Part shown: in pieces, positions 27,163 through 40,639 of the stretch | Layout: every line of letters starts with the position of its first letter | Numbering within the stretch: the first letter of the stretch is position 1 | From: Nitrospirota bacterium | Lineage (GTDB): Bacteria; Nitrospirota; Nitrospiria; 2-01-FULL-66-17 | Reading direction: 5' to 3' | Length of the DNA stretch: 64,000 nucleotides | Assembly: GCA_049325335.1 (NCBI GenBank) | Contig: JBMOMC010000007.1 | Coordinates: forward strand, 224,001 to 288,000 | Made by a program: the position numbers

Positions 27163-30100
27163 TCAACAGTTGTCCCGGGTTACCGAAGAACAGCCCGTCG
27201 GCGCCCGCGGAGTTGATGGCTTTCGAGGCGAACAGGCCGGTCGCGATCGCGCCCCACGTCCCGCCCACCCCGTGCACGCCCACCACGTCCAGCGCGTCGT
27301 CGTAGCCCAATTTCGACTTGAGCACCACCGCGAAGTAGCACAGCACCCCGGCGCCGATCCCGATCCAGATCGACGAAATCGGTCCGACGAACCCGGAGGC
27401 CGGCGTGATCGCGACCAACCCGGCGACCGCGCCGCTGGCCGCACCGAGCACGGTCGGTTTGCCGCGGTACGCCCACTCCACGAACATCCACGCCATGGCC
27501 GCCGCGGCGGTCGCGGTGTTGGTCACGACGAACGCGCTGGTGGCCAACGCCCCGGACGCCACGGCGCTGCCCGCGTTAAATCCGAACCACCCGAACCAGA
27601 GCAGTGATGCGCCCAGTACGGTAAACGGCAGGTTGTGCGGAGTGAATAGTTCGGTGCCGTAGCCGCGACGGCGGCCGATGACCATCGCGGCCGCCAGCGC
27701 CGCCACCCCCGAACTGATGTGCACCACGGTGCCGCCCGCAAAGTCCAGCGCACCCATGTTGCGCACCCACCCGCCGACCGCCCACACCCAGTGGGCCAGC
27801 GGCGAATACACCAGCGTGGACCACAGCAACACGAACAGCAACAACGCGGAGAACTTCATCCGCTCGGCGAAGGCGCCCGTGATCAACGCCGGGGTGATCA
27901 CCGCGAACATCATCTGAAAGATCATAAACGCTTGATGGGGAATGGTACCCGCGTAATCCGTGTTCGGCTCCCCGCCCACGCCATTGAGCCCCAGCCAGTC
28001 GAGGCCGCCAATCCAGCCGCCCTTATCCGGCCCGAACGCCAGCGTGTAGCCCCAGAGCACCCAGGTCACGCTGACCAGGCACAAGATGATGAAGCTGTGC
28101 ATGATCGTGCCCAACGCGTTTTTCTTCCGGACCATCCCGCCGTAAAAGAGCGCGAGGCCCGGCGCGGTCATGAGCAACACCAACGCGGTGGACGTCAACA
28201 CCCAGGCGGTATCCCCGGTGTCCACGGTCGGCGCGGCCGGTGCCGACGCGGCCTCGGGTTCCGGCGCAGCCGCCTCCATGGCCGCGGGCACTTCTTCAGC
28301 GGCCGGCGATTCCGGGCTCGCCTCCTGCGCCAGCCCTGTCAGCGGCAGCACCAGCGCCACCCAGAGGACCGTCAGTCCCAACAGACTTGCTATGACACGC
28401 TTCCTACTCATACTCATAGCCCCTACTCCTTGTGTGAAACGTTCGTGAAAGGGTGAACACCACCGCCTCGCCACCACCACCCCGCTGACACAGGGACCTT
28501 TAGCAAGCACGGGGCCACCACATCCGATCCACCTGACGTCGCGTCACCGCACTGAAAACACTTGAGAAAATCCCATCAGGATGGTGTGGCGACCTCCATT
28601 GAGACACGACAGGCGACCACCAGGTCAGACATTTTTGTCGAGAGCCGACACTTTTGTCGAACGCACGATGCCGTATTTCTTCATCTTGTAGCGCAGCACG
28701 CGTTCGCTGATTCCGAGGCGGCGTGCCGCCTCGGACTGACTCCCGCTCGCCGCGGCCAATGCGCGCGTGATGAGGTCGCGCTCTAAATGCTCCACCGCGT
28801 TGCGGATCGAGGCATCCGTGTCATGCCGCGCGGCGTTCCCGCTCATGACCGCGGCTCCGTGGGCGCTCCGTCGCCGTGCGCGACGTGAACGGCCTTATCG
28901 CGGATCACGTGGCGCGCCAACCCCTCGAGTACGGATTCCAAGGCGTCGCACGGGACGTCTTCCATGATCTTGCTGCCGGGTTCGGTGCGCGGGCCGGATC
29001 GGCCGCCGACGAAAATATCCACCGCGTCCACAACGTGGCCGTTGATCTTGGCCCGTTTGCCCAACAGACCGATATCCGCCATCAGGTGGTTGCCGCAGCC
29101 CGACGGGCACCCGGACCAGTGGATCGAAACGGGTTTGCTGACGGAGACCTTCTGCTCCAACGCCCGCGCGATCGCGAGTGCGCGCGATTTGGTTTCGATC
29201 AACGCGAGACCGCAGTAGTCGGTCCCGGGACAGGCCACCAGACCGCGCATGATTTCGGAGGGATTGTAGGGCACCTCTTTGAGCAACGGCTCGTCGGCCA
29301 ACAACGCGCCAAGCTTGCGGTCCGGAACATTCACGAGGACCACGTTCTGTTCCGGCGTGATACGGATTTCGCCGCTGCCATAGCGCTCCGCGAGCCGGGC
29401 CAGGTCCTCGATCTGCTCGACGGTCAACCGCCCGATCGGCACCGCGAGCCCCACGTAGTTGAGGCCGGGTTGCTTCTGCCGGAACACGCCGATGTGCGTG
29501 TTCTTTTTTTTTGCATTCCGCTCATCGGTCCCAGCGCGAAGGAGCGGCCGGCCGACTCGCTGTTCGATGTCGGTGCGAAACCGCTTGGCGCCCCACTCCT
29601 GCACTAGAAACGCGAGTCGCGATTTGTTGCGGGCTTCGCGTGGACCATGGTCGCGGAATACCCAAATAATGGCGCTCGCAACATCCACCGCCTCCTCGGG
29701 CCGAACAAACACGTCCAGCGGGGTCGCCGGGGTGAATCCCCCCGATCCTTGCTTGCCACCGACCGCAACGTTGAATCCCATCACGGGTTCCCCGTCGATG
29801 GTCCGCGAGGCGGGCGTCATGGCGATATCTTGGGACTCGGAATGCGTGCAATTCTCCCGACAACCGGTGATGACGATGTTGAGCTTGCGCGGCAGATCCG
29901 TGAACTCCCGGTTGTTGATGAATCGCTGGGTGAGCGCGCGATTGATCCCCGCGGTATCCAGGGTTTCGGTCGGGGCCAGGCCCGTGACCGAACAGCCCAT
30001 GACGTTGCGGATGTTGTCCATGCCGGTCTGCATGGTGGTCAGCCCCACGGCCTGGAGCGCGTCCAAGATCGCGGGAATCTGCTCGATCGTCATCCACCGC

Positions 30101-39100: not shown

Positions 39101-40639
39101 CACGCGCCCACATGGGTAGGGGCGTACGGCCGTACGCCCCTACGAAGACCGCAGGAAATGGACCCAGAGACAACGCCGCGATGTCCATGTATGGACAGGC
39201 TCTCACACGCGGGCCCCGGACACGGCTCCCCACGTTGTTCTCCAACGGGCCTTCACGAGCACCAATCCGACGAGACCAACGAGCGCGAGCCCGGCAAATA
39301 TCAGGAACCCCAAGGCAAAATCCCCGGTCAACCCCTTGGACCATCCGAGCGCTCGGGCCAAGACGAATCCCCCGAGCCCGCCGGCCGCCCCAACCAGTCC
39401 GGTCATTACGCCCATCTCCCGGCGAAAACGTAACGGCACCAACTGAAACACCGATCCGTTCCCCATCCCCAACGCCATGGCCCCGACAAAAAAGATCGCC
39501 ACCGCGGCCCAGGCCGCTCCGGGCAGATCGAGCAGACTCCACCCCGCCACCTTGGCGAGCGCGACGGACTCCGCGGCGGGCGACGGCCCCTCGGGCAGAA
39601 ACGCCACGGCCAGATACATGAGCGAGACCACGCCAAAGAGCGTTTGCAGGGTCCGGATGCCTCCCAGGCGATCGGCCAACCACCCGCCCACCGGCCTGAA
39701 CAGGGACCCCGCGAACACCACGATGGCGACCATAAGACCAGCGGCGATCCCGGACGCGTGATACCACTGGGTGAAGTAGAGCGGGAGCGCGCTGCTCAGG
39801 CCCACGAATCCGCCGAACGTGATCGAGTAGAAGAACATGAACCACCACGTGTCCGGATCCTTGAGCACCCCGACGTAGTTTGACCACGTCACCGGCGCCG
39901 CCCGATCCGGCGCGTCCTTGGCCATCACGGCATAGAGCAGGAACACCACGGATGCGGGAATCAACAACGCCCCGAACACCGCCTGCCACCCGAAGCGCTC
40001 GGCCAGCCACGGCACGAACATGGAGTCCAGCACCACGCCCATGTTGCCGGCCGCGGCGATGCCCAGGACCATGCCTTGATACCGTGGGGGGTACCAGCGG
40101 CTCGCCTGCGGAAGCGCCACGGCAAAACTCGCCCCCGCGACCCCGAGGATGACCCCGAGCACCTCCACGTCCAGCTTGCCGTGCAAACCGACCAGCCAGG
40201 CGTAGGCCAACCCGGCCATGACCACGAGCTGACCCGCTTGCCCCGCGCGTTTGGGGCCGATCTGGTCGGCCAAAATTCCCAGGGGAATCCGCAACGCGGC
40301 GCCGAACAGGATCGGGATCGCCACGATGCCGAACTTTTCTTCAACGCTGAGCGTCAGGTCCTGGGAAATGTACAACGACAGTGGGCCGAGCACTACCCAG
40401 ACCATGAAACTGATGTCGAAATACAAAAAGGCCGACAACAGCGTCGGCCAATGCCCCGCGCGCGCAAACTCTTTGACATTCCACACGGATCGCCTCCGGC
40501 CCGCCGTGGATACAAAGCAATCTCAATGCCAGGGCAATCGCGCGCACGAGGGGCGGGGGAGGGAACGTCTGACACAATCGTCGAACAGAAATGTCGCGCC
40601 CGCGACAAACTCGTCGCGGTGGGCGACGCCGGTGGGTTA

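Follow-up and report, generated by a model that had tools for sequence, protein, structure and literature searches.

A six-gene cluster in a Nitrospirota genome probably encodes an electroneutral, cytoplasm-facing, two-chain quinol:nitrate oxidoreductase for nitrogen assimilation. The two chains are a molybdenum (Mo-bisPGD) catalytic subunit of the Nas/Nap clade and a subunit in which a DmsB-like ferredoxin is fused to a DmsC-like membrane anchor. The window analysed was a stretch of 64,000 nucleotides, and all positions below count along it. In the proposed mechanism, nitrate would be taken up through NarK, and quinol would be oxidised at His321, Ser338 and Glu343, on that side of the eight-helix anchor which faces the cytoplasm. 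The ferredoxin domain of the fusion would carry the electrons along its four [4Fe-4S] clusters to the FS0 cluster and then to the Mo of the Nas-clade subunit, where nitrate would be reduced to nitrite, and an NAD(P)H-fed NirB/NirA hybrid would reduce the nitrite to ammonium. As the two protons set free and the two taken up would be on one side of the membrane, the quinol-fed step would be electroneutral, unlike the NarGHI loop. The initial annotation had predicted a cytoplasm-facing, membrane-bound, quinol-fed assimilatory reductase; the inverted topology, the conserved quinol site, the strict co-occurrence of the two genes and the regulatory signature all agree with this, and we infer quinol as the donor, the direction of electron flow and the electroneutrality.

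The gene cluster

The six cluster genes were found where they had been placed initially, all on the minus strand between positions 28843 and 40486. The cluster and its flanks comprise the following features:

39203-40486, minus strand: MFS transporter for nitrate/nitrite, NarK-like (NarK is the best-scoring NCBIfam family, but under its cut-off)
37378-39084, minus strand: PP2C phosphatase-Ser/Thr kinase fusion
34983-37163, minus strand: Mo-bisPGD catalytic subunit, 726 aa, Nas/Nap clade
33142-34914, minus strand: DmsB-like/DmsC-like fusion subunit, 590 aa (Fer4_11 at residues 84-175, DmsC at 257-549)
34417-34791, minus strand: four-cluster ferredoxin core within the fusion (residues 42-166, with 16 Cys)
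33265-34143, minus strand: eight-helix DmsC/NrfD-type anchor of the fusion, residues 258-550
32001-33176, minus strand: MOSC-MobA fusion, Mo cofactor maturation (start uncertain; conserved part from near 33010)
28843-31812, minus strand: single-chain nitrite reductase, 989 aa (NirB-type N part, NirA-type C part)
28625-28846, minus strand: stand-alone Fis-type HTH ORF, 73 aa, overlapping the nir stop (kept in relatives L001 and L132)
40637-42378, minus strand: flanking amtB and PII gene (palindrome at 42342-42357)
24644-28510: second amtB, two further PII-like genes and a porin

The nitrite reductase combines a NirB-type FAD/NAD(P)H domain, one BFD [2Fe-2S] domain and a NirA-type siroheme part. 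The PP2C phosphatase-kinase fusion is a frequent neighbour of the system, with a kinase-type match in 24 of the 80 loci collected.

Regulation and assimilatory context

Four sigma-54-type sites head narK, the Mo-subunit gene, nir and amtB, and the cluster, previously taken for a single operon, looks like several sigma-54 units instead. Five such sites were observed in the window against 0.96 expected. The sites and the palindromes near them are:

40517-40531, minus strand: sigma-54-type site ahead of narK (palindromes at about 40569-40617)
37199-37213, minus strand: sigma-54-type -24/-12 site ahead of the Mo-subunit gene (similar sites in L001, L132, L010 and L126)
37263-37299, minus strand: pair of palindromes of the CGACA-N4-TGTCG type upstream of the Mo-subunit promoter, candidate enhancer-binding-protein sites
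31843-31857, minus strand: sigma-54-type site ahead of the nitrite reductase gene (palindromes at 31925-31940 and 31961-31976, both also in L132)
28503-28517, minus strand: sigma-54-type site ahead of the second amtB (palindromes at 28626-28641 and 28645-28660)

Among the relatives, a sigma-54-type site precedes nirB in 15 of 26 nirB-nirD-Mo-fusion units (background 2.6%). No palindrome was found upstream of glnA. A further palindrome site, at C42:4314, has a shikimate-kinase/DHQ-synthase gene on one side and on the other an ORF that matches no Pfam family. Control by sigma-54 extends beyond nitrogen genes, and the host genome encodes about 17 full sigma-54 activator domains, which counts against a nitrogen-specific reading. 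A search of the genome found no other Nas/Nap-type enzyme and no NarG. Together with the sigma-54-type promoters common to this system, amtB and nir, this argues for a role in assimilation, and the cluster may be repressed by ammonium.

Where flanks were long, an assimilation marker was present in 47 of 63 loci and missing from 16, the latter counting against assimilation. No nitrogen-assimilation genes were found among the neighbours of the seven marker-less loci scanned. An ordinary NasA-type gene is also encoded in 9 of the 80 loci, which means that assimilation does not everywhere depend on the complex alone. Both observations would suit a complex of the same cytoplasm-facing design that worked mainly as a non-electrogenic electron sink, for redox balance or for reducing nitrate to ammonium at low oxygen, with assimilation secondary. 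NarG was found in only 4 of the 22 genomes searched, so that the complex could be the sole nitrate sink in the rest, and NirBD works in both routes (PMC4914600). We nevertheless regard a principal role as a sink as unlikely: the promoter signature is common with amtB, the cluster sits amid amtB and PII genes in the host genome, five of the seven orphan loci keep the sigma-54-type site, and a separate NarG is kept by three f12 carriers.

The fusion subunit

The fusion gene is one reading frame without a stop. It had 3536 matches among 8000 candidates, and the best 120 listed were nearly all full-length fusions (55-100% identity), so the fusion is no assembly artefact; a frameshift or chance read-through was rejected as its source, and the single-protein DmsB-DmsC fusion described earlier was upheld. 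The Pfam layout was likewise recovered as annotated. The gene exists as reported, but its length of 590 aa may be too short: the nearest relatives suggest a TTG start 24 codons earlier, at 34986, which would overlap the stop of the Mo-subunit gene and give 614 aa. Of the 846 plasmid records with a match, none covered 80% of the fusion.

The 16 cluster Cys fall into four groups, as in DmsB-type four-cluster subunits. With a first alignment, the FeS domain was predicted at a pLDDT below 50; a more diverse alignment resolved the fold, which is that of PsrB (TM 0.82) and is NarH-like as well.

Partnership of the two chains

Among 301 Nitrospirota genomes, the two genes occur in an identical set of 16. 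The Mo-subunit gene lies directly upstream of the fusion in 72 of the 80 loci and five loci were too short to tell; in three it is not adjacent, which counts against the two-chain reading. For the predicted complex of the Mo subunit with the ferredoxin domain, the high score reported initially was obtained again (0.91, best control 0.01), the mark being reached by 116 of 157 solved pairs and 2 of 215 mismatched pairs. Contacts agreed to at least 73%, with a partner pLDDT of at least 80. In the model, cluster FS1 of the fusion (C42/45/48/166) faces FS0 of the Mo subunit, and physical binding of the two chains is a prediction; the score may owe something to likeness to solved PsrAB/ArrAB/FdhAB-like pairs.

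Topology of the anchor and the quinol site

Eight membrane helices in two bundles were found in the anchor, as in DmsC/NrfD-like proteins, rather than the seven segments counted before. Residues His321, Ser338, Glu343 and Arg545 align with His65, Ser82, Glu87 and Arg271 of E. coli DmsC, which have been named quinol-site and gate residues (PMC8076601). All four are unchanged in every one of 87 diverse sequences, and the His, Ser and Glu do not vary even where identity falls to ~26-30%. From these residues, the anchor is predicted to be a quinol-binding module at which quinol would be oxidised.

On the FeS side of the anchor there are 17 Lys/Arg residues, against 2 on the other side. The FeS side was also the richer in 114 of 114 close homologues and in 58/59 and 10/10 scored distant fusions, compared with 0/7 scored unfused DmsC anchors; these counts took in only rows with eight called helices, and the positive-inside rule is a prediction. 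The charge bias is thus inverted, and the FeS and quinol side is therefore predicted to face the cytoplasm. Inspection of both chains revealed no export signal on the Mo subunit or on the fusion, and the DmsABC-type arrangement, with a periplasmic FeS side and a Tat-exported DmsA-type subunit, was not what was found.

The anchor could instead be mainly a tether, with electrons coming from a soluble donor as in ordinary Nas, either ferredoxin or NADH, the latter by way of the nitrite reductase's flavin domain. The gene most often found nearby codes for a nitrite reductase of the NAD(P)H-flavin kind (NirB-type match in 49 of the 80 loci). DmsB clusters and characterised NarB operate at low potential, which would suit a strong reductant and makes ubiquinol or methyl-plastoquinol fit less well as the donor. 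We give a soluble donor little likelihood all the same: the quinol-site residues are invariant despite low overall identity, the NasA tail that accepts such electrons is missing from the Mo subunit, and the fusion persists while the partner nitrite reductase varies between NirBD, NirA and a hybrid.

Ion translocation by the anchor was considered very improbable. Here a proton gradient would be spent to lift electrons from a high-potential quinol onto low-potential clusters, or energy would be conserved from the large drop to nitrate. The anchor fold does match ActC (Z 22.7, rmsd 2.9, 285 residues), and the DmsC equivalent of the invariant Arg545, Arg271, is a proposed gate in all NrfD-like proteins (PMC8076601). 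However, the far-side loops and helices of the anchor are poorly conserved, half-channels are hard to define in DmsC and SoeC (PMC8076601), and the overall reaction is strongly downhill, the nitrate/nitrite potential of +433 mV (PMC10100899) being far above that of quinol.

The catalytic subunit

The FS0 ligands of the Mo enzyme are Cys26/29/33/62, accompanied by Lys64; the first Cys is thus at residue 26 and not 25. The active site holds the Mo ligand Cys155-Met156 with Asp170, Gln351 and Arg358. Cys155-Met156, Asp170, Met313, Gln351, Arg358, Lys64 and Cys62 are kept in 79/79 close and 10/10 distant partners, and Cys26/29/33 fall in end gaps in four rows of the partner alignment. These active-site residues match Nas/Nap and differ in FdhF; by this signature the enzyme has a nitrate-reductase active site and is predicted to reduce nitrate. 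The RR motif that had been declared absent does exist as a pair at residues 5-6, but its second Arg is variable and it is not followed by a hydrophobic segment, which rules it out as a Tat signal. In the comparison E. coli NapA shows the real motif; Tat export was rejected and the enzyme remains Tat-less as first described. Pfam found no Fer2_BFD domain, and the chain ends at 726 without the C-terminal [2Fe-2S] tail of NasA; neighbouring proteobacterial NasA enzymes have 155-199 more C-terminal residues.

The label NarB-type proved too specific. Identity is 37-40% to many Nas enzymes (37.8% to the S. meliloti pSymB enzyme, 40.4% to a Hymenobacter enzyme), and the best solved relative is D. desulfuricans NapA (474 bits). 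In a quick tree, in which no NarB sequence was placed, the enzyme fell into a separate Nas/Nap subclade, all sampled members of which adjoin the fusion. Nor does it fit a cyanobacterial-type NarB, a ferredoxin-dependent monomer lacking a dedicated FeS or membrane partner, given the co-occurrence and complex score above.

A different substrate or direction (formate dehydrogenase, nitrite oxidation, another oxyanion) is scarcely credible, even though Fdh-alpha scored highest among the NCBIfam models (617 bits against a cut-off of 666) and the nitrate-reductase models all stayed below theirs (NasC 528/1100, NasA_Halo 469/1000, NapA 421/904), because the S. meliloti Nas-type enzyme ranks the models alike and also misses all four cut-offs, which therefore say little, the active site is Cys-Met and not the Cys/Sec-His of formate dehydrogenase, the neighbours are nitrate and nitrite genes, and nitrite at +433 mV could not reduce quinone without energy input.

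Distribution and host physiology

The arrangement is widespread: at least 550 loci were found in a GTDB scan. Record titles of carriers include Oleispira, Bermanella and Hahellaceae, which we take to be heterotrophs; Acidobacteriota carriers rest on Atlas rows only, and look-ups of sequence clusters yielded little taxonomy for the distant subfamily. The loci carry the label 'DMSO reductase' in databases, although one automatic label already reads 'nitrate reductase (quinol-dependent)', and a search of open-access main texts found no paper describing the system.

The host genome encodes ATP-citrate lyase, UbiA, a bd-like oxidase, cytochrome b and several multihaem ORFs; MqnA/D, COX1, NrfD and RuBisCO were not found in searches of it. 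The initial annotation had proposed an energy-cheap device of a high-potential lithoautotroph. ATP-citrate lyase, UbiA and the lack of MqnA/D fit this for the host, but two of the 16 Nitrospirota carriers encode MqnA/D and, with the heterotroph titles, exclude a restriction to high-potential-quinone lithotrophs. The proposal is only partly supported, and only 2 of the 8 electrons would use the quinol route.

Comparison with known systems

The textbook view of assimilatory nitrate reductases is that they are soluble and draw their electrons from ferredoxin or NADH. Like NasA, NasC and NarB, to which identity is 35-40%, the present enzyme has a Cys-ligated Mo-bisPGD subunit in the cytoplasm, an FS0 cluster, the shared active-site residues and a neighbourhood of NarK, nitrite reductase and PP2C-kinase. 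It differs in its separate subclade, in lacking the [2Fe-2S] tail and in its four-cluster/membrane fusion, where the others use ferredoxin or an NADH diaphorase. A DMSOR-family phylogeny states that four-cluster and membrane-anchor subunits are associated with none of the members of the Fdh/Nas/Aio/Nap clade (PMC7331816). If the proposed reading is true, the system is a widespread exception to that statement and to the soluble-enzyme view, and NADH would be spared for two of eight electrons in organisms with reverse electron flow. Given the 'DMSO reductase' labels, the potential for nitrate assimilation and DMSO respiration may be miscounted in genome surveys. It is a step further, and an unlikely one, to propose a third donor class beside ferredoxin and NADH, in which a Nas-clade enzyme lost its soluble input and took, fused and inverted DmsBC; such a class would span Nitrospirota, Pseudomonadota and probably Acidobacteriota, and in its boldest, proton-moving form would couple nitrate assimilation to the membrane potential.

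NapA, of the same clade and the best solved relative, is periplasmic and works with NapC or NapGH; the present enzyme is cytoplasmic, has no Tat signal and has a different quinol module. NapA is quinol-fed, which shows that a Nas/Nap active site can run on quinol. NarGHI likewise reduces nitrate in the cytoplasm with quinol as donor and its NarH fold resembles the FeS domain, but NarG has an Asp ligand and comes from a different lineage, and NarI forms a di-haem b redox loop; the present system lacks NarG, its anchor is of the DmsC type and its turnover is predicted to be electroneutral. SoeABC offers a precedent for the inverted topology: its Mo/FeS pair faces the cytoplasm, and its NrfD-like anchor, for which an inversion has been proposed, has equivalents of His65, Ser82 and Glu87 (PMC8076601). 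It oxidises sulfite, reduces quinone, has three chains and belongs to another Mo lineage; the present Mo subunit, being Nas-clade, is not SoeA, and no SoeC was found among the collected loci. E. coli DmsABC and T. thermophilus PsrABC have the four-cluster subunit, the eight-helix anchor and the His/Ser/Glu/Arg residues in common with this system, in which the B and C subunits are fused, the anchor is predicted to be inverted, the context is biosynthetic and the Tat-less catalytic subunit is of the Nas/Nap clade and only 23% identical to DmsA. With close unfused relatives of opposite charge bias, the fusion would be a clean natural example of the inversion of a whole protein's topology.

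Gene content and partnership of the fusion

The Mo enzyme and the adjoining fusion protein probably constitute a cytoplasm-facing, electroneutral quinol:nitrate oxidoreductase serving assimilation. Gene and domain calls placed the six-gene cluster entirely on the minus strand, as initially annotated:
28843-31812 (-): nir, hybrid nitrite reductase (NirB-type N-terminus, NirA-type C-terminus)
32001-33176 (-): MOSC-MobA fusion
33142-34914 (-): fusion of a DmsB-like ferredoxin to a DmsC-like membrane anchor
34983-37163 (-): Mo enzyme, 726 aa
37378-39084 (-): PP2C-kinase
39203-40486 (-): narK

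The fusion was confirmed as 590 residues in a single open frame with Pfam matches to Fer4_11 (84-175) and DmsC (257-549). Among 8000 scored candidates 3536 matched it, and nearly all of the best 120 listed were full-length fusions, which together with the single frame ruled out an assembly or frame artefact. If translation began instead at a TTG that overlaps the Mo stop, the product would have 614 residues; a homologue 87% identical (P0005) begins at this position, and two relatives have ATG there. The structure model, built from a diverse alignment (pLDDT 88.4, pTM 0.88), contained eight membrane helices spanning 258-550. On structure comparison its N-domain resembled PsrB (Z 21.4, rmsd 2.8, 186 residues) and its membrane domain ActC (Z 22.7, rmsd 2.9, 285 residues). 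Low-complexity hairpin inserts between the Mo, fusion and MOSC genes varied among relatives.

Full-length fusion and close Mo enzyme were present in the identical 16 of 301 Nitrospirota genomes, a count including related, non-independent genomes; in two of the 16 they were on separate contigs. The Mo gene lay immediately upstream of the fusion at 72 of 80 GTDB loci, five being too short and three exceptions. At 18 metagenome loci with distant fusions (~28-34% identity), a Nas-like Mo gene was downstream in 14, one had an upstream Mo gene of 25% identity and three had none. Unfused B and C genes in metagenome loci adjoined DmsA-like enzymes of 21-25% identity. At L004, L005, L084 and L085 (G281 and G283, one Nitrospirota family) the fusion followed nitrite reductase and a divergent PII gene, with the Mo gene on a different contig. 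A DsrC-like gene family occurred in 16 loci (e.g. L056:11435-11806), immediately 3' of the fusion at the one locus inspected, and a conserved 122-aa ORF lacking a Pfam match in 18.

The high complex score reported initially was reproduced for the Mo chain and fusion residues 20-245 (0.91, best control 0.01), the mark being reached by 116/157 solved and 2/215 mismatched pairs. Contact agreement was at least 73% and partner pLDDT at least 80. At the predicted interface, residues 60-67 of the Mo chain lay against residues 43-61 and 165-169 of the fusion, the junction of the Mo-enzyme [4Fe-4S] cluster (FS0) and the facing fusion cluster (FS1). Because similar complexes are already solved, the score shows likeness to these, not binding.

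Evidence for a proposed assimilatory role

The host genome (99% complete) encoded a single Nas/Nap-type enzyme and gave no NarG match, and the nitrate cluster was flanked by amtB and PII genes. The surrounding features were:
20927-23359 (+): iron-containing alcohol dehydrogenase domain (residues 418-792) behind a long N-terminal part without Pfam match; adjoins a GAF-GGDEF gene
24644-28510 and 40637-42378: two amtB, three near-identical PII genes (81-86%) and a BBP2 porin
28625-28846 (-): stand-alone 73-aa Fis-type HTH ORF overlapping the nir stop, kept in relatives L001 and L132
28626-42357 (-): CGACA-N4-TGTCG-type palindromes, mostly paired, ahead of amtB, narK, the Mo gene, nir and the second amtB
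37349 and 39116: REP-like 20-base GC-rich palindromic repeat flanking the PP2C-kinase gene, 18 copies in the genome
43509-45547 (-): dimethylarginase/amidinotransferase-family and LOR/SDH ArgZ-like genes just upstream of the ammonium/nitrate cluster, possibly for arginine as nitrogen source

Sigma-54-type sites were located ahead of narK, the Mo gene, nir and amtB, with paired palindromes upstream of all four. The pattern, defined after the sites had been seen, matched five times in the window versus 0.96 expected. The palindrome matrix was derived from the window's own sites, its sole independent support being the relatives L132 and L126, where sites and palindromes were both found again. Across GTDB loci, such a site lay within 330 bases of nirB in 15/26 nirB-nirD-Mo-fusion units, of free-standing Mo genes in 11/26 and of Mo genes behind nirD in 1/31; the value for random windows was 2.6%. 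Further strong single palindromes occurred at C44:85368 and C42:4314. The two palindromes preceding amtB sit within the 3' end of the Fis-type ORF, whose product might compete with the sigma-54 activator through DNA binding alone.

An assimilation marker was present at 47 of 63 long-flank loci. Against a purely assimilatory role count the 16 loci lacking one (no assimilation genes near the seven scanned), an ordinary NasA-type gene alongside at 9/80 loci, and the absence of any palindrome seen upstream of glnA. That the complex is mainly a redox sink was considered rather unlikely.

Orientation and proposed mechanism

The anchor loops carried 17 Lys/Arg on the FeS side and 2 on the far side, the opposite of E. 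coli DmsC (4 and 8, respectively). All 114 close homologues were likewise richer on the FeS side. Under one scoring rule, keeping only rows with eight called helices (fused 7/11, 59/76 and 10/15; unfused 7/9 submitted), the FeS side was higher in 7/7, 58/59 and 10/10 fused proteins and 0/7 unfused anchors. By the positive-inside rule, this excess implies an inverted anchor with a cytoplasmic FeS domain, in agreement with the absent export signals. The fused B-C frame L170:1739-3274 showed the same inverted bias, and the Mo gene ahead of it shares just 25% identity with the query; inverted fusions may therefore also work with another lineage of catalytic subunit.

His321, Ser338, Glu343 and Arg545, invariant in 87/87 diverse family sequences, align with DmsC His65, Ser82, Glu87 and Arg271. 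The available text of PMC8076601 describes these as quinol-site and gate residues, and a His65 change as abolishing quinol oxidation. Beside this conservation, an anchor acting as a tether, with a soluble electron donor, appears improbable.

In the favoured quinol:nitrate oxidoreductase, quinol would be oxidised at the cytoplasmic face of the anchor and electrons would pass through the four fusion clusters to FS0 and Mo, where nitrate (+433 mV in the accessible part of PMC10100899) would be reduced to nitrite. Since protons would be released and taken up on one side of the membrane, turnover should be electroneutral; an ion-coupled anchor was judged quite improbable.

Methyl-plastoquinol is the likely donor, because aerobic Nitrospirota use methyl-plastoquinone according to the available text of a preprint (10.1101/2024.07.27.605408). 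The host encodes ATP-citrate lyase, UbiA, a bd-like oxidase and cytochrome b; RuBisCO, COX1, NrfD, MqnA/D and alternative complex III were not found in its genome. MqnA/D was encoded by 2/16 Nitrospirota carriers, and carrier distribution was patchy (e.g. 2/64 in one methanotroph family). Two adjoining host frames (C43, about 87000-93000) contained 24 and 14 CxxCH motifs.

The nitrite reductase keeps its NAD(P)H-flavin domain, so a low-potential donor is still required for six of the eight electrons; the 'energy-cheap' assimilation first proposed is thus a real but limited saving. This hybrid is common (1357 matches); it is a single chain that carries one BFD cluster and lacks NirD. Its ~990-aa homologues include Nitrospirota and Acidobacteria entries, some with a fused Rieske domain.

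The catalytic subunit

The closest solved relative of the Mo enzyme was D. desulfuricans NapA (474 bits). Cys155-Met156, Asp170, Met313, Gln351, Arg358 and Lys64 were conserved in 79/79 close and 10/10 distant partners and agree with Nas/Nap; the active site of E. coli FdhF, by contrast, contains Sec-His. The highest HMM score was to Fdh-alpha, under that model's cut-off, and the S. meliloti pSymB Nas-type enzyme ranked likewise. Action on another substrate was regarded as very improbable.

The initial annotation had reported no RR motif. One is present in the window copy, but the residue after MLFGR is variable and no hydrophobic stretch follows, so a Tat signal was rejected, as originally concluded. 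The enzyme ends at residue 726, without the C-terminal tail of 155-199 residues of NasA-type enzymes from the same loci. In a quick tree (54 rows, SH-aLRT support only, 27/78 close relatives sampled), fusion-adjacent enzymes formed two clades (100 and 98) united at 91, separate from tail-bearing NasA (98) and from NapA. The label 'NarB-type' was not established, because other Nas enzymes match at the same 37-40% identity and the comparison set was without cyanobacterial NarB.

Comparison with known systems

No description of the system was found in the open literature, a scope outside which lie subscription papers and supplements, nor in the accessible portions of PMC2607301, PMC12342949, PMC6688271, PMC10305379, PMC4914600 and PMC8269255. 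The NrfD-like complex survey PMC8076601, in its available text, names no nitrate reductase or fused form. The combination of Mo enzyme and fusion contradicts PMC7331816, according to whose available text four-cluster and anchor subunits are absent from all members of this clade. The idea of quinol dependence is already present, at least in annotation, since the name 'Nitrate reductase (Quinol-dependent), transmembrane subunit' was assigned automatically to a cluster of relatives in the ESM Atlas. All modules of the system are already known, and SoeABC is a precedent for the inverted anchor, SoeC being proposed to be inverted likewise in the available text of PMC8076601.
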